From positions 1,632,001 through 1,696,000 of the forward strand of contig OY729426.1 of NCBI GenBank assembly GCA_963422365.1: 64,000 bases of DNA. Direction: 5' to 3'. The DNA is from Nitrospirales bacterium (GTDB lineage: Bacteria > Nitrospirota > Nitrospiria > Nitrospirales > UBA8639). The translations under genes were made by a program, and so were the position numbers. Positions within the stretch are counted from its first letter, which is position 1. The number at the start of each line of letters is the position of its first letter. Below the pieces are notes generated by a model. It made no database searches. It was given only the letters and a program-made list of their open reading frames with translations, and was not told where the DNA came from. Below are positions 34,462 to 41,651 of this stretch, one piece after another.

Positions 34462-34503
34462 GTGACGGAGAGGGTGGTGACTGAACGTGGACGGAGGGCC
34501 GTG

Positions 34504-37500
34504 ATGAACCGACACCGACACTTTCACCCTGTGAAGAGATTGAACCACGTCCCTGGTCTGCGGGCTCTCACCGCCTCCTTCATCACCCTCCCCCCCCCCC
34601 CCCCCCCCTCCCCCCCCCCCCTGAAATTTCTGTTCGGCACCCTAACTTCTGAACCCCGGCGGTACCTCGCCGCGACCCTCGGCCTGATCCTCTCTCTCAT
34701 CTGTGTCCTGCCGGTCGCCGCACAGACCTCCCCAGGCGTCACGACTTCCCCCCCGGCGGCCCCTGCCGGGCTCACAGTGATTGCGCGCAGTGGCAAAGTC
34801 AAGTTTCGGTGGACCGATCCCAACAATGCTGCCATCACCGGGTATCAGTATAAACGATGGACGGGCAAGACCGAGCCTGCCGGTGGCTGGGTATACTTTG
34901 CCGGTACGTCGAGTGCGACGACGCAGGCCCGCTCGGTACGGGGGCTGACCGACGGCACCGAGTACCATTTTCGCCTTCGGGTGGTGGCCGGCAATGTGAC
35001 GGGGGCGCCGTCCGACGTGATGACCGTGACCCCGGGGCGCACGCCGACCGCGCCTAGCAACAGGCCTGTCGTCACCGCGGTACGTGGCGACGGACAAGTC
35101 ACGTTAAGCTGGGGTCATCCCAATAATGGTGCCATTATCAAATATCAGATCCGGCGGCGGGGCGTGCCGATTGCACACGTCGGGAGTAAACCCGACTGGA
35201 ATGCCTGGAGCGACATTCCGGGCAGCGACAAAGACACCATCCGGCACGTGGTGACCGGGTTACCCGCCGGCGTGAAATACTACTTTCGCCTTCGGGCGGT
35301 GGCCGGTGACTATGTTCATGGGCCGGCGGCCTATGGGCCGGCATCCAGTGTCATCGGGGTCAAGCTGGTCGCGGCGCCAGCGGCACCGCCGCCCAAACCC
35401 ACCGGCCTTGCGAAGGTCATTGGCAACGGCCAAGTGACATTAACCTGGGACAATCCCAACAATCTTGCCATCACCGGGTATCAATATAAATACTGGAGTG
35501 GCACCCCCGAGAGCGGCCGCTGGAGCGAGGTGTCGGGCAGTGACAAAGACACCATCAGCCACGTGGTGACGGGGTTGACCAACGGCACCAAATACCACTT
35601 CCGCCTTCGGGCGCTGGTCGGGCGGGTTGCCGGAGTGAAGTCCCGTTCCACTAGTGCCACACCGGCGGTCCCGCCGGCACAGTTAGCGCCGACTGCAATC
35701 AGTGCGCATGTCGGGTACAGACAAGTCGAGTTGATCTGGCGTGATCCGAGTCTGAGGGATCAGAAGGACACCACCATCACCAAATACCAGATCAAATACT
35801 GGAGCGGCCCGAGCGAGACGGGGGCCTGGCGGGACATTTCCGCCACGATCAACACCAGACACGCCTACTACATCGTGACGGGGCTGACCAACAGCGTGCC
35901 GTACAATTTCCGGCTTCGTGGGTTGACGAACGGGTTTGTGGTGACCGAGTCCAACCGCGTGCAAGCGAGCCCGGTGGCGCCGCCGCCGAACACCCCCGCC
36001 CGCCCTCAGGCGGTGGCCGGCGACGGTGAAATAACGTTAACCTGGGCCAATCCCAACAACCGCGACATCACCGGCTATCAGATTCGGCAATGGACGGGCG
36101 GTGGGGAGCGAGGCAGTTGGAGTGCTTGGAGCGACATCCCGGGCAGCGACAAAGCCACCACCGGCTATACCGTGAGTGGGCTGACCAACGGGGTGAAATA
36201 CAGCTTTCGCATTCGGGCGGTCGCGGGCAGGGTGACGGGGTCGCAGTCCCCCTACACCGCCGTCGTAATCCCCGGGGCCACGCCGAGGGCCGGCAGAGTG
36301 ACGAGAGCGGCGGCGGCCGGGGGGCTCACCGTCATCGGGGCGGACCCGGGCACGCTCGACATCACGGGCGACCGCATCACCGCCACGGTGGGCGGCACGG
36401 GGGTGGGGCTGACGCTGCCGTCTGCACACGGCGTCACCCGGGTCACCTTCTCGAGGCCGCCGCGGGCAGCCGTCCCGGCACCGCAGGCTGGGGTGACCTT
36501 TGGAGCGGCAGCGGCCTACGTGAACGTGGAGCTAGACCCGCCGCTGCCCTCAGCCTCACCGGCCACGGTCTGTCTGCACCGGCCGGCCGGGCTGTCGGGC
36601 CATGCCGCGGTCTATCACCTGGCCGAGCAGGGCCGTGAGTGGGAAGCACTGGCCGGGGCCGGCCCCGAGCATCAGGCCCGGCGACCGGGGGACATCTGCA
36701 GCAGCCTGCGAAGTGGGTCGCCGGTTGTCGTCGGGACCCGAACCGTGGAGGGGGCCACCCACACCCGTGACGCCGACCCCCTGGGCGTCACGTTATCCGA
36801 CACCCGTGTCACGGTCACCGAAGCCAGTGGTGCCGGGCGCACCGCCACCTACACCGTGGGGCTCACGGCCCAGCCGAGTAGCGCTGTCACCATCACCCCG
36901 ACCAGCGGCGAGCCTGGCGTGGCCACCATCACCCCCTCATCCATCACCTTCACCCCCGCCAACTGGGACACGGCCCAGGCCGTCACCGTCACCGGGGTGG
37001 ATGACCGCGTTGATGCGGATCGCCGGACGACCATTACCCATACCGTCACCGGGGGGGGCTATGACGCGGTACGTATCCCCGACGTGGCCGTCACGCTGAC
37101 GGATGACGACACGGTAGCGGCCCGGCTCTTCGGCTTTGCCGGGGACACCCTGACCGTCACCGAGGCCGACGGCGCCATGCACCGCACCTACTACCAAATC
37201 GTCCTGCAAAGCCAGCCGACCGGCGCCGTCACCATCATTCCCACCAGCGGGAAGACCGGCGTAGCCACCGTCACCCCTTCATCCATCACCTTCACCGCTG
37301 ATACCTGGGCCGAGCCACAGAGCCTCGCGGTCACCGGCGTGGACGACCACGTTGATGGGGGAGACCGACGCACCACCATTACCCATACCGTCTCTGGGGG
37401 CGGCTACGACGCGGTGCGCATTCCCGACGTGGCCGTCACGCTGACGGATGACGACGTGGCCGGCATCACCGTTACCGAGACGGATGGCCACACCGTGACC

Positions 37501-39936
37501 ACCGAAGGGGGGAGTCGCGACAGCGTCAGCGTGGTGTTAGACAGCCAGCCCACGGCCGAGGTCACCCTCACCGTCTCGAGTTCCGACGTGAGTGAAGGCA
37601 CTGTTGACACGAGCCGCCTGGTCTTCACCCCCCACAACTGGGCCACCGCGCAGGTGATCACGGTCACCGGGGTGGATGACCGGTTGGATGATGGCGAGCA
37701 GTCGTACAAGATCGAACTGGGTATCGCAGCCAGTCGCGACAGCCACTACAATGGGCTCAAGCCTGATGATGTGGTGGTCACCTCGACGGGCGCGTTCTTC
37801 GTTGAACTCACCGGGGTTGTCCTGGGCACGACCAAGATAGAGGGCTACACCATCACCACACAGGTAGACGGGGCGGGGGTGCAGTTGACGCTGCCGGCCG
37901 GGCACGGGGTGACCAAGGTGGCGTTTGCGGTGCCCCGCGCCCGGCCGGCGGCGCCGGCCGGGGTGACCTTTGGGGCCGAGCCGGCCTCCCTGGAGATCCG
38001 GCTGGACGCGCCGCTCGCCTCAGCGGCCACGGTCTGTCTGCACCGGCCCGCCGGGCTGTCGGGGACGCTGTTTGTGTATCATCTTGCCGATAAGGCCCAG
38101 ACGTGGGAGAAACTGTTGCCCGCAGCGGCGCCCCGCGGGTATGTCTGCGGCGAAACAGGCAGCTTTTCGGTGTTTGTCGTGGGGTCGCCCCTGCCGGTTT
38201 TTGGGGCAGCCTCGATTGAGGACTACAGCTGGACGGTTGGGGAGGCCCTCGGCCGGGTGCGGCTGCCGGCAGCCACGGGGGGCGACGGGCCGATCACCTA
38301 CCGGCTGAGTCCGGCTCTCCCGGCGGGGCTCAGTTTTGAGGCATCGGCACGCACCATCACCGGCACGCCCACGGAGGCGGTGGCGAAGACGCGGTTCACC
38401 TACACGGCCACAGACACCGACGGCCAGACGGGGCAGTTGCACTTCAGGGTGACGGTGCAGGCTGCTGAGGTGACGCACCGTTCCCGGGCGCTCACGGTAG
38501 CCCTCGCGGCGTTCGGGCGGACGGCCGCCACCGAGGCGGTAGACGTAATCGGGCGCCGGTTTGAGGCGGCGCCGGTCACGACGCCGGCGGTCACGGTGGG
38601 GGGCACGGCAGTCCCCGCCCTGGACGTCCGGTCCGTAGCGGGGGTGTTGGGCGGGGTGCTGGGCCTGACGGGAGCGAGCCGGGACTCGGCCGGCCGAGGC
38701 CGAGCGGCCGAGGGCCGGGTGGCCCCGAGCCGGTCCCCGCGACTTGCGGCCACGGACGTGTTTGCGCGCAGCGAGTTTGCCGTGCCGTTGACCAGGACGA
38801 ACGAGGGTGAATTGACAACGGGCTGGACCTTCTGGGGCACGGGGGCAGCCAGCGGCTTTTCCAGTCGGCTCCTGGAGACCGACGGGGCGTTCTACACGGG
38901 CTACGTAGGCCTGGACTACCGGTTTGGGCAGAAGGGGCTGGCGGGCGTCGCGGTGTCGCACAGCGTGGGGGGCCTGGACTACGAGGTCGCGGGGGACTTT
39001 CTCCTGGTCAGCGGCGAGCGAGGGGGCATCCGGGGCGAGGTAGACCTGGCCATGACCAGCGTGCTGCCCTATGTCCACTACACGCCGTCTCCGGGGCTTG
39101 GGCTGTGGGGCCTCGCGGGCGCGGGCGCCGGGGAGCTGGAGGTGCAAGACGCCGCCGGGCGCGTGGAGACGGACGTTCAGTTGCTGCTGGCCGCGGTAGG
39201 CGGGCGGCAGGCGCTGACCACGTGGCACGGGATCGAGGTGGCGGTAAAATCCGATGCGTTTGCCGTGCGGGTGAAAGCGGACGAAGCCGCGGGGCTGGCG
39301 GCGGTGACCGGGGTGGCGCACCGGGCGCGGGTGGCGCTGGCGATGAAGACGGACGTGGCCCTGTCACCAGAGTCGGCCCTGCAGCCCAGTGTGGAGCTGG
39401 GGGGGCGCTGGGACAACGGCGACGCCGAGACGGGGATGGGAGCAGAGCTCAGCGGCGGGGTCGAGTATCAGCAGAGGCGGTGGGGGGTGAGTCTCGCGGC
39501 TCGCGGCCGGTATCTGCTGGCGCATCAGGCAACGGACTTTGAGGCTTGGGGCGGCAGTCTCGCCGTGAAAGTAGGAGAGGGGCTGGGGGGGCAGGGGCTG
39601 TGGGTGGCGTTCGAGCCGACGTGGGGCACCCCAGCCAGCGGCGTGGAGCAGCTGTGGGGCCGTGAGGCCGGGCCGGCCGGCAACGGGGCGCCCGCGGGCG
39701 GGGCCGTGGGCCGGCTGACGGCGGACGTTGGCTATGGGCTGGCCCTGCGCCGGCCCGGGTGGCTGGTCACGCCCTACGGGGGCGTCGCCACCGGGCCGGC
39801 TACCAGCCGGTACCGGCTGGGCGGCCACCTCCAGGTCCACGAGACCATGGCCCTCAGCCTCGAGGGGATACAGCAAACCACCCTTGACAGCGCCACTGAG
39901 CACGGCATCGTGTTCTCCTGGACGGTGGGCTTGTAG
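34504..39936 (+). CDS. Surface adhesin/autotransporter 2 (extended signal peptide, 5 FN3, 2 Cys-containing modules, 3 Calx-beta-like repeats, PIG-like Ig domain, beta-barrel)
   Basis: Open frame 34462-39936; GGAGG before GTG 34501/ATG 34504; C-terminal ~690 aa near-identical to adhesin 1. Confidence 0.9.
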   Translation: MNRHRHFHPVKRLNHVPGLRALTASFITLPPPPPPSPPPLKFLFGTLTSEPRRYLAATLGLILSLICVLPVAAQTSPGVTTSPPAAPAGLTVIARSGKVKFRWTDPNNAAITGYQYKRWTGKTEPAGGWVYFAGTSSATTQARSVRGLTDGTEYHFRLRVVAGNVTGAPSDVMTVTPGRTPTAPSNRPVVTAVRGDGQVTLSWGHPNNGAIIKYQIRRRGVPIAHVGSKPDWNAWSDIPGSDKDTIRHVVTGLPAGVKYYFRLRAVAGDYVHGPAAYGPASSVIGVKLVAAPAAPPPKPTGLAKVIGNGQVTLTWDNPNNLAITGYQYKYWSGTPESGRWSEVSGSDKDTISHVVTGLTNGTKYHFRLRALVGRVAGVKSRSTSATPAVPPAQLAPTAISAHVGYRQVELIWRDPSLRDQKDTTITKYQIKYWSGPSETGAWRDISATINTRHAYYIVTGLTNSVPYNFRLRGLTNGFVVTESNRVQASPVAPPPNTPARPQAVAGDGEITLTWANPNNRDITGYQIRQWTGGGERGSWSAWSDIPGSDKATTGYTVSGLTNGVKYSFRIRAVAGRVTGSQSPYTAVVIPGATPRAGRVTRAAAAGGLTVIGADPGTLDITGDRITATVGGTGVGLTLPSAHGVTRVTFSRPPRAAVPAPQAGVTFGAAAAYVNVELDPPLPSASPATVCLHRPAGLSGHAAVYHLAEQGREWEALAGAGPEHQARRPGDICSSLRSGSPVVVGTRTVEGATHTRDADPLGVTLSDTRVTVTEASGAGRTATYTVGLTAQPSSAVTITPTSGEPGVATITPSSITFTPANWDTAQAVTVTGVDDRVDADRRTTITHTVTGGGYDAVRIPDVAVTLTDDDTVAARLFGFAGDTLTVTEADGAMHRTYYQIVLQSQPTGAVTIIPTSGKTGVATVTPSSITFTADTWAEPQSLAVTGVDDHVDGGDRRTTITHTVSGGGYDAVRIPDVAVTLTDDDVAGITVTETDGHTVTTEGGSRDSVSVVLDSQPTAEVTLTVSSSDVSEGTVDTSRLVFTPHNWATAQVITVTGVDDRLDDGEQSYKIELGIAASRDSHYNGLKPDDVVVTSTGAFFVELTGVVLGTTKIEGYTITTQVDGAGVQLTLPAGHGVTKVAFAVPRARPAAPAGVTFGAEPASLEIRLDAPLASAATVCLHRPAGLSGTLFVYHLADKAQTWEKLLPAAAPRGYVCGETGSFSVFVVGSPLPVFGAASIEDYSWTVGEALGRVRLPAATGGDGPITYRLSPALPAGLSFEASARTITGTPTEAVAKTRFTYTATDTDGQTGQLHFRVTVQAAEVTHRSRALTVALAAFGRTAATEAVDVIGRRFEAAPVTTPAVTVGGTAVPALDVRSVAGVLGGVLGLTGASRDSAGRGRAAEGRVAPSRSPRLAATDVFARSEFAVPLTRTNEGELTTGWTFWGTGAASGFSSRLLETDGAFYTGYVGLDYRFGQKGLAGVAVSHSVGGLDYEVAGDFLLVSGERGGIRGEVDLAMTSVLPYVHYTPSPGLGLWGLAGAGAGELEVQDAAGRVETDVQLLLAAVGGRQALTTWHGIEVAVKSDAFAVRVKADEAAGLAAVTGVAHRARVALAMKTDVALSPESALQPSVELGGRWDNGDAETGMGAELSGGVEYQQRRWGVSLAARGRYLLAHQATDFEAWGGSLAVKVGEGLGGQGLWVAFEPTWGTPASGVEQLWGREAGPAGNGAPAGGAVGRLTADVGYGLALRRPGWLVTPYGGVATGPATSRYRLGGHLQVHETMALSLEGIQQTTLDSATEHGIVFSWTVGL
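34590..34621 (+). repeat. C19-T-C12 homopolymer in the 5' coding region of adhesin 2
   Basis: Counted directly; encodes PPPPPPSPPP ahead of the signal-peptide h-region. Confidence 0.95.
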
Positions 39937-40123
39937 GGAGGGAGGGGCCTCGGCCATCCCCCCCACGGCAAAAGGTCGGCAGACAGCGAGCAGGGCGCCC
40001 CGGCTTTTCAGGCAGGGCTGGACGGGACACAGGGGGGGAATGCTCGAAACGTGCCGGTCTCTAGGGGGTTGCCTTCTTGGGCTTTACACACTACACCAGT
40101 TTATCGTCGCCAAAGAAGACCTC
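37868..40123 (+). repeat. Copy 2 of the ~2.26-kb inverted repeat
   Basis: Matches reverse complement of 15336-17591, including ~190 bp beyond the stop codon. Confidence 0.95.
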
Positions 40124-40214
40124 TACTGTCCCTTCCCCCTGCTGCCTTCATCCTTCCACACCCCCCTACCCCGCTGCCGGCTTGACGGCCTCGGGGCGAG
40201 AGGGGAGCGTGTTC

Positions 40215-40290
40215 GTGGCGCCGGAGTCATGTTCGTCATGACCTGATCCTTCGGGGCAGCGCGGGTGGCTGCGGCCCGCCCGGCGCCACC
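40215..40290 (+). ncRNA. Candidate tRNA-like four-way-junction RNA
   Basis: 10-bp closing stem plus three hairpins, one with a C(UUCG)G loop; TTGACG at 40182-40187 with a weak -10 at 40205-40210; not a canonical tRNA. Confidence 0.6.
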
Positions 40291-40970
40291 TATACCCCGC
40301 CCACCCGCTTCAACATCCGCCGTCCCTGCTCCACCTGGTGCCGCCGAGCCCGCGTGTAGCTCACCGGATACGTTTCCCGCCCGTCTGTTGTGCGTTTAAT
40401 CACGGCGCACCACCAGCGGCTATCCTCTGCCACGAAGCCCCCGAGCACTCCCGGGCGCTCGGCCGACTGGAACACGGCCCCCACGTCGAGTACGTGCTGC
40501 AGGCGCTGATAATCCCGGGGTGTCACGTCGGAATGCCGTTCGGCTTTGTTTGGCCGCGGTCCAGGCCGAGAGGCGCACGGTGGGCGAGGTCGCGCCGAGG
40601 GCGGTGGCCACTGACTCGGGCAGCCGGGCGACAGGCTGCGCTCCGGGGATCGGCTGCCGGAGGAACGCGGCAAACGCCGGGCTCGCCAGCCCCGGGGCCG
40701 TCACCGCGTGCGCGGTTGCGGGCGGCTGCGCCTCCAGCTGTTCGACGAGGCGCGAGGCGGCGTCTTGCGCACGTCAGGCCCCGGCCGCAGCCCGGCCCAC
40801 GTGGGACGCCCAGCCGGGATCAATCCCCACGGGCACCAGGCAGACTTGCCCGGTGCCCGTGTTGCGCAGGGCGTGGTCACGACACGGCGCACGCGCGAGA
40901 CCGACCAGCCACGCCGCGCCAGCTCGGCAGCGGAGAGTGGCACCACACGGCACCGCCACCTTGGGCACCT
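40290..40970 (-). pseudogene. Decayed phage MuF (head morphogenesis) C-terminus fused to a PBECR-type nuclease
   Basis: RCRVVPLS..EL.RRG, TGQV..VPVGIDPGW, then VRLSAWTAAKQ|AERHSDVTPRDYQRL...AVIKRTTDGRETYPVSY.R; two frameshifts and a stop. Confidence 0.65.
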
Positions 40971-41169: not shown

Positions 41170-41346
41170 CGCTGTCGCCTGACCAAGCAACAGCTAGAGC
41201 GAATGCGTTGGGAGTTGGAAAAGGAACTCGAGCCTGAAGACAGCCTGATGATTGTGGGACTGTGTGGCTCGTATACGTCGAAGCTAATTGCGCGTAACAC
41301 CAAGATCGAGTGGGTCGAGGAAGAGCCTCGCTTTTGTGTGGTGTGA
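41170..41346 (+). pseudogene. cas2: C-terminal fragment of Cas2
   Basis: RCRLTKQQLERMRWELEKELEPEDSLMIVGLC pattern of type I-B/Myxan-like Cas2; catalytic N-terminal half missing. Confidence 0.75.
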
Positions 41347-41651
41347 ATTTTTTGGGAAAGATATAGAATTCATGCATCTCTGGGTGTTTCGAGCCATGCG
41401 CCATAAAAACGGCTAAGCACTCGTATTTTTTAAAGAAAAGAGAAATGAAGGAATAAAGGGATGCGTGAAATGAGAGAAAGTGTTGGAATATTCGTTGGTT
41501 GGATGGGAAGAGAGAGGAACATTTTGGCATTTTGTGAAGAAGCCCAATTGTGGGCAATGATTCCTTGCATAGAGTGTAAAAAAATCCAACAAAACCAGTC
41601 TCTTATTTATGGGCTGTGATTACATATCAGATGCCGAAAGGCGTTGAGCAC
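41347..41651 (+). CRISPR. AT-rich CRISPR leader plus one 36-nt repeat (GTGATTACATATCAGATGCCGAAAGGCGTTGAGCAC, 41616-41651)
   Basis: Repeat has the GTG...GATGCCG.AAGGCGTTGA.CAC form with internal hairpin; follows cas2 fragment; no second repeat recognisable. Confidence 0.75.

Follow-up and report, generated by a model that had tools for sequence, protein, structure and literature searches.

Beside a phage MuF-nuclease gene in the genome of a Nitrospirales bacterium lies a predicted non-coding RNA of tRNA-like size and overall shape, and its family recurs with its own promoter at the stop codons of related nuclease genes. The element lies in a stretch of 64,000 nucleotides that was analyzed as a whole (the window); other loci are referred to by L numbers. 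We consider it probable, at roughly 60%, that this RNA is an antitoxin, or immunity factor, that takes the place of an immunity protein and directly inhibits the BECR-type RNase borne by the MuF protein. Sequence comparison among homologs establishes the structure of the predicted RNA, its loop-loop elbow, the position of its promoter and its linkage to the nuclease domain.

A four-way junction RNA with its own promoter

The element at 40215-40289 of the plus strand folds into a four-way junction with a minimum free energy of -45.1 kcal/mol (z -3.3), and 1 of 200 shuffled sequences folded equally well. The fold contains the stems of the original prediction: P1, a P2 hairpin of GTCATG/CATGAC, a P3 hairpin with one bulged A and a C(UUCG)G loop, and P4. 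Across both strands of the 64 kb, 77 segments of 75 nt have an 8-bp terminal stem and 4 of these form closed three-hairpin junctions; the element scores -44.2, compared to -15 to -23 for the other three. Compared with its homologs, the cloverleaf at 40217-40287 is a real and conserved feature, although two of its stems are shorter than first drawn. The 10 bp described for P1 are present in the window copy, but the conserved stem has 8. Likewise, the P4 hairpin (drawn as GCGGGT/GCCCGC with a 7-nt loop) stands, but its conserved stem has 5 bp and a loop of 8–10 nt because the supposed stem G at 40274 belongs to the loop-loop register. The letters here, including the frame break near 40545, are also present in contigs of the DNA runs. 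The features of the locus are collected in Table 1.

Table 1. Features of the predicted RNA, its promoter and the neighboring gene, in window positions.
Feature	Position	Strand	Basis
-35 box TTGACG of the RNA's own sigma-70-type promoter	40182..40187	+	17/21 homologs start TTG here
-10 box GAGCGT, degenerate in the window copy	40205..40210	+	19/21 homologs start TA; all 21 boxes 6-7 nt before P1
Predicted non-coding RNA, four-way junction, about 71-74 nt	40217..40290	+	ends inferred, unmapped
P1, 8 bp (40217-24 with 40280-87), acceptor-like, stacked on P4	40217..40287	+	97.7% of cells paired; 5/8 pairs changed on both sides
P2 hairpin (D-arm position); family-wide, only the first two pairs and one A-U kept	40226..40242	+	60% of cells paired; 3/4 counted pairs changed on both sides
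P3 hairpin, C(UUCG)G loop, placed like an anticodon arm but lacking an anticodon	40243..40259	+	folding and family alignment
P4, 5 bp GCGGG/CCCGC, 9-nt loop; T-arm position, no T-loop consensus	40261..40279	+	98.4% of cells paired
Loop-loop pseudoknot, 40234-36 (P2 loop) with 40271-73 (P4 loop)	40234..40273	+	4/6 counted pairs changed on both sides; permutation p 0.0014
Nuclease-like domain of BECR fold at the C-terminus; frame open, His and last-strand Ser retained	40290..40545	-	relatives, alignment, predicted structure
Frameshifted remnant of MuF C-terminal half and linker; N-terminus missing	40546..40960	-	intact paralog elsewhere in the genome, Phage_Mu_F E 4.8e-25

The plus strand had been favored on the basis of G-U pairs and the UUCG loop. 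The first argument is not supported, since G-U and A-C combinations occur 18 versus 14 times across homologs and the minus strand folds equally well (z -4.3). The strand assignment therefore rests on the promoter together with the UUCG loop, which is kept. The proposed promoter, TTGACG-N17-GAGCGT, is in place and is too weak for a consensus scan of the window, which found none at the element. Its GAGCGT is one of the two -10 boxes that depart from the family pattern. At L003, an intact copy of the module in the same genome, the promoter is near-consensus (TTGACA-17-TATGCT). No conserved terminator follows P1 in the family alignment, and no U-tract terminator was called at the window element. 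The window RNA may be weakly expressed, as this copy has a weak -10 box and belongs to a decayed remnant.

The neighboring gene and its nuclease domain

The opposite-strand gene had been described as decayed, and it is a frameshifted MuF-nuclease remnant without its N-terminus. The last 85 codons are open and end in a stop codon at 40290-92. The RNA was originally thought to overlap this stop codon; the predicted RNA instead abuts it and does not lie within the coding sequence. The remnant is located between the end of a gene for an 1824-aa fibronectin-III/Ig surface protein (34462-39936, plus strand) and a fragment of cas2. DNA at the 3' end of the surface-protein gene (39900-40123) recurs in at least four other places in the genome. 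The cas2 fragment, a 3' remnant (41170-41346, plus strand; Pfam E 0.0013), is followed by a single CRISPR-DR33-like repeat (41615-41651, plus strand) whose core is the only exact copy in the genome, and the locus is read as a decayed CRISPR.

The genome holds four copies of the nuclease and exactly four matches to the RNA, at the same four places. Three of the nuclease copies are decayed. The intact copy, L003, encodes a 426-aa MuF protein (Phage_Mu_F E 4.8e-25) and follows a Mu-type portal gene (Portal_Mu E 1.4e-81); it thus has the N-terminal Phage_Mu_F domain beside a portal gene that marks a MuF polymorphic toxin, of which the window copy is a remnant. The L003 RNA is diverged, and a 131-aa ORF lies beyond it. 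Between the window and L002 copies, identity is 90% in the RNA, 82% in the nuclease part and 54% in the promoter region. None of 60 related genomes contained the nuclease domain, and a search of 150 genomes from the phylum found no copy of the RNA, so the module arrived with a phage.

The original prediction named the domain a PBECR nuclease. Fold and relatives support a PBECR-like identity, but the domain matched no Pfam PBECR or MuF_C model. Clustering at 50% leaves 69 relatives. Several are C-termini of MuF proteins, and Phage_Mu_F was detected in 7 of the 19 that were scanned. The conserved positions are Lys-Gln, His, Asp-Tyr, Trp, Lys and a Ser/Thr in the last strand, with the His nearly invariant among 48 domain sequences. 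In the AF2 model (pLDDT 91), a His in the N-terminal helix region and the last-strand Ser/Thr are placed as in the BECR fold. The top structural matches are CdiA-CT NC101 (Z 6.6, rmsd 3.0, 79 residues aligned), BrnT (6.2), a Salmonella toxin-antitoxin toxin (6.2) and colicin D (5.3). All of them are BECR RNases, with middling Z-scores below 8 that indicate a resemblance in fold and are no proof of function. Foldseek against the PDB gave no match at E 0.001 and PHROGs gave none. One relative, L081, matched PBECR3 at E 1.6e-4, below the cut-off, and the Atlas leads were PBECR2 and MuF_C, both at 0.86. The domain is therefore called PBECR-like here, and its RNase activity is presumed from the modeled fold. 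In the portions of Iyer et al. (2017, PMC5512222) considered, PBECR domains are defined by a helix His and a C-terminal Ser/Thr, the copy of phage Mu is called inactive, RNA binding by the domain is suggested, and neither an immunity factor nor a partner RNA is described. The window subfamily differs from those PBECR and MuF-C domains in having no Pfam PBECR match.

The RNA is conserved at the stop codon of nuclease genes

Searches with the domain yielded 34 loci, 28 of them in genomes, 5 viral and 1 from a metagenome. All but one of the 28 genome loci have the RNA on the opposite strand at the stop of the nuclease gene; most of these were training sequences of the RNA model. A search of 28 loci outside the training set gave a further 7 convergent matches at the stop. 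One of these is in the cultured phage POA1180 (E 0.007), where no ORF is annotated in the 308-nt gap. Whole-genome searches of five genomes with the RNA gave 35 matches, of which 30 were retrieved. In 27 of these the domain ends no more than 125 nt away, 2 adjoin tails that are split or duplicated, and 1 is an orphan. Nine of the matches were new relative to the protein search, and these divide into 6, 2 and 1 in the same categories. Relatedness among the sequences means that no count in this analysis is made of independent observations. One genome (G061; L094-L101, L107, L108 and L111) contains 12 RNA matches, 11 of them adjoining nuclease copies on many contigs, which points to repeated spread of a Mu-like prophage. 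At L090, an ORF resembling a DNA methyltransferase by eye (1431-2207) lies between the nuclease tip and its RNA.

The cloverleaf is supported by covariation. In an alignment of 27 sequences, which include non-independent kin, 83% of cells were paired and 17 of 29 pairs had changed on both sides; none of 500 shuffles scored as high, and slid controls were 35-45% paired. P1 and P4 are about 98% paired family-wide and P2 is weak beyond its base. RNAalifold, applied to alignment A3, recovered only P1, P4 and two other pairs, and missed P2 and P3. The original prediction had staked itself on finding, beside homologs of the nuclease gene, a cloverleaf that is conserved and covaries and a promoter that is convergent; both were found, the promoter in 21 of 21 homologs.

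These data leave little room for a purely cis-acting element that yields no RNA of its own, whether a terminator, a processing site or a DNA repeat; the element does begin at the stop codon and its minus strand does fold as well, but the promoter fixed 6-7 nt from P1 in all 21 homologs, the covarying pseudoknot, the lack of a called U-tract terminator and the presence of only four genome copies, all at nuclease genes, make it very improbable.

A Watson-Crick elbow and a longer form of the RNA

The loops of P2 and P4 can pair with each other, and their sequences vary in concert, as in the pairs CGC/GCG, CGT/ACG, TCGCT/AGCGA, CGTC/GACG and TCGAC/GTCGA. Cognate loop pairs outscored permuted ones (4.60 versus 4.00, p 0.0014); the cognate partner ranked first in only 3 of 26 cases because most loops have the same core. 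On this comparative evidence, the P2-P4 loop pairing is a Watson-Crick version of the tRNA elbow, newly described here.

Phages commonly carry a longer form, about 100 nt in length, that shares this topology. A motif scan of viral contigs gave at least 120 matches, of which 80 were taken and 77 were unique. In 62 of these 77 listed copies the same nuclease domain is the tail-to-tail neighbor, convergent in every case. The remaining 15 comprise 2 beside other PBECR-like tails, 2 at gene-side contig ends and about 10 orphans. Again among the matches listed, a P2 loop of CTCCC is followed by GGGAG in 62 of 64 copies and CTGCC by GGCAG in 13 of 13; 7 of the 13 CTGCC-type copies have no domain match. 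In 26 long-form sequences, 92% of cells were paired and 22 of 31 pairs had changed on both sides, with P2 fixed by the search pattern. One orphan long-form RNA (L318, 801-1039, minus strand) is directly downstream of a tRNA-Thr gene. Searches for the long form by blastn found nothing in E. coli genomes or GenBank phages, and single-domain searches of viral contigs and GenBank phages also found nothing.

The short-form model (R1) did not detect the long form at a useful score, and the long-form model (R2) did not detect the window's form, so that common descent of the two forms is unsupported. R1 likewise gave no useful score for the elements of PBECR2/MuF-C type. Elements in all these loci were assessed by visual inspection and from the promoter score. 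Further structured elements, unrelated in sequence and with convergent promoters, were seen after PBECR2-type tails (four with Pfam matches) and other MuF tails (L042, L046, L047, L050, L054, L056, L059, L069, L075, L248 and L268), and these probably represent several more RNA families. The use of several unlike structured RNAs with one protein domain, on either strand, is shared with the DUF3800, drum and skipping-rope motifs as described in the part of Weinberg et al. (2017, PMC5737381) considered. Those motifs accompany a different protein and often end in a terminator, whereas the RNA described here has no Rfam match.

Relationship to tRNA

The element was predicted not to be a normal tRNA, and both programs run on it agree. 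ARAGORN called no genes in the window, nor at L003, L073, L159 and L239. Rfam gave no match at the window element. In sets of 18 and 20 related loci its one match was to tRNA-Sec, at L073 (E 0.67). A normal tRNA is also rejected by the window element and alignment A3, which lack a T-loop consensus, a D-loop GG and a 7-nt anticodon loop. The suggestion of a tRNA mimic holds for overall shape. The 12-13 bp acceptor plus T-stem stack and the elbow of tRNA have counterparts in the 8+5 bp stack and the covarying P2/P4 loops, from which the three-dimensional shape is deduced. It does not hold for the anticodon arm or for the ACC, or CCA-like, end. NCC occurs in 2 of 27 homologs and NCCA in none, and mimicry of CCA was accordingly rejected.

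The RNA family thus resembles tRNA, especially tRNA-Sec, in its four-way cloverleaf, 8+5-bp stack and contact between the second and fourth loops. It differs in lacking the T-loop consensus, D-loop GG, anticodon loop and CCA, and in having a Watson-Crick paired elbow. At L073 (2772-2844, minus strand), an element at the same position has a true T-loop (TTCGATT) and the D-loop GG, with no anticodon loop. Its T-loop and weak tRNA-Sec match hint at tRNA origins.

The convergent promoter tends to follow the state of the nuclease

A set of 81 non-identical MuF genes, with near-duplicates and truncated loci excluded, was sorted by tail; the sorting was done by eye and was not blind, as the downstream DNA had already been seen. 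Convergent promoters were scored generically with a threshold of at least 7.5, a score that is confounded by the presence of an intergenic gap. Of 37 tails that keep catalytic-looking residues, 28 were followed by a promoter that reached the threshold (24 of the 31 that bear His and 4 of the 6 that combine Lys/Arg with Thr). None of 14 degenerate tails, which include that of phage Mu, had such a promoter, nor did any of 5 unrelated tails, while 2 of 25 short MuFs did. By folding z-score, active tails could not be told apart from short or other tails (p 0.26) and differed weakly from degenerate ones (p 0.03). A quick tree built from 49 long-tail proteins requires six changes to or from the degenerate state, at least four of them forced by strong branches; sister contrasts include L059 versus L063/64 and L203 versus the L201 group. 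In Mu and D3112, the next gene overlaps the MuF stop codon.

At L116 four nuclease tips stand in tandem, and behind each lie an RNA-like element and a TTGACA-type promoter of its own; tip two is PBECR2-like by eye and has a different element. The arrays of L116 (150-2560) and L117, with RNA and promoter for each tip, look like orphan toxin-immunity cassettes. About 10 of the 77 long-form copies, among the matches listed, and L132 have no nuclease within 800-1500 nt. In L161 an intact-looking gene has other, insertion-like DNA at its stop codon, and no RNA was found in the next 10 kb; the same genome has an RNA elsewhere (L177). The orphan RNAs and L161 count against a strict dependence between RNA and nuclease.

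Proposed function and alternatives

We propose that a stand-alone RNA gene would serve as the immunity factor of a BECR-type RNase at the C-terminus of a phage MuF head protein. Its sigma-70 promoter would allow the RNA to be made in the lysogen, apart from the late operon, and the product would fold as an L-shaped, tRNA-sized body with an 8+5 bp stack and a Watson-Crick elbow. We infer that the RNA is transcribed, that the nuclease is toxic, and that the RNA would bind it as a substrate-like decoy and neutralize it. The cell would be protected both from leaky or lytic expression of MuF and from MuF injected by related phages, while the convergent orientation would keep transcription of the RNA off the downstream late genes.

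Several lines of evidence support the antitoxin reading. The linkage is close (27 of 28 loci at the stop, four RNAs at four nucleases in one genome, and 62 of 77 long-form copies among the matches listed), the promoter is lost together with catalytic residues, and each tandem tip has one RNA. The RNA also resembles in shape the tRNA substrates of the nearest solved folds. Two copies (L087, E 0.003; L086, E 0.28) lie on the same strand as the nuclease, which further supports this reading and implies that antisense geometry is dispensable. Lastly, this position is usually occupied by an immunity ORF in MuF toxins. In the sections of Jamet et al. (2017, PMC5576092) considered, a small immunity ORF is downstream in 89% of 191 toxins. 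Those toxins share with the locus a MuF N-terminus joined to a C-terminal effector, a setting in the head module of temperate phages and, on the antitoxin reading, a protective element directly downstream. There, however, the element is an ORF and no RNA is mentioned in those sections, whereas here it would be an RNA gene with its own promoter.

The RNAs of type III toxin-antitoxin systems (ToxIN, CptIN, TenpIN and AbiF-type) lie upstream of the toxin gene, are co-transcribed with it and often consist of tandem repeats that the toxin cleaves. Those systems (see also PMC11806420) resemble the module described here in that an RNase-fold gene of a phage or prophage is accompanied by a structured RNA with a pseudoknot. 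The RNA here is instead single, downstream, mostly convergent, tRNA-shaped and separately promoted, and the nuclease beside it forms part of a virion protein. The locus therefore does not have the type III gene arrangement; if the inferred function holds, it would work like type III without being a member.

An antisense role is unlikely, although part of the evidence fits it. The RNA, or read-through from its promoter, would pair with the late mRNA after muF and lower expression of the toxin or of downstream genes. Convergent type I toxin-antitoxin loci and C4/CI-type cloverleaf antisense RNAs provide precedents. Convergence in nearly all cases, including all 62 domain-linked long-form copies among the matches listed, fits this role, and since P1 is followed by no conserved terminator, transcription would probably continue into the nuclease gene. 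The element abuts the stop codon and would overlap a read-through late mRNA, and co-loss with toxicity would likewise be accounted for. The same-strand copies argue against it, as does the covarying internal pairing of both loops, which leaves no seed. A conserved tertiary fold is needless for antisense action, and no C4-type Rfam match was found at the window element or in related loci.

It is similarly improbable that the RNA is a partner of the nuclease, as scaffold, activator or packaged cofactor of a virion-delivered MuF-nuclease ribonucleoprotein. Linkage, co-loss and the conserved compact fold also fit a partner, and RNA binding by the domain is suggested in the portion of PMC5512222 considered. 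Nevertheless, a host-type promoter apart from the late operon would be a better fit to expression in the lysogen, RNAs without a nuclease exist, and alignments A3 and A6 show no obvious variable stretch of the kind a guide would have. Clearly more doubtful is a tRNA-derived decoy for other targets, such as host anti-phage tRNases or uncharged-tRNA sensors, with the link to MuF being a matter of module history. The orphan copies, one of them beside tRNA-Thr, and the T-loop and weak tRNA-Sec match of L073 could be read in this way. The tight one-to-one linkage and repeated co-loss with catalytic residues speak against it, and neither CCA nor an anticodon is conserved.

Significance

In the literature searched, with most subscription papers outside its scope, no description of a pairing between a MuF nuclease and a tRNA-shaped RNA was found. 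Judged by comparative sequence evidence, the RNA family is real, unmatched in Rfam and, as far as searched, uncatalogued. Unnamed copies may sit in the candidate catalogue of Fremin (2023, PMC10690425), where the main text, in the portion considered, mentions neither MuF nor PBECR and the supplement has three Phage_Mu_F rows in a table of genes that follow candidate RNAs.

In proteobacterial phages, MuF tails have so far been listed as extensions of unknown function, and PBECR domains have been predicted RNases without a known target or control. A dedicated RNA whose occurrence tracks the catalytic residues makes it possible to predict the active tails, and the findings suggest tRNA as the likely target of the nuclease. 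The system can be reduced to two parts, one 130-aa domain and one 70-nt RNA. More broadly, the chances seem about even that diverse tRNA-shaped RNAs are the immunity factors of phage MuF/PBECR RNase toxins, with each nuclease subfamily having its own RNA, some of them tRNA-derived, with the elbow being a re-codable Watson-Crick kiss and with orphans immunizing against rival phages. This would amount to a polymorphic toxin system with RNAs as its immunity genes. If the RNA of the window family is an antitoxin, RNA-based immunity would extend from type III systems to virion-delivered polymorphic toxins, and an uncatalogued class would be added to the natural tRNA mimics.
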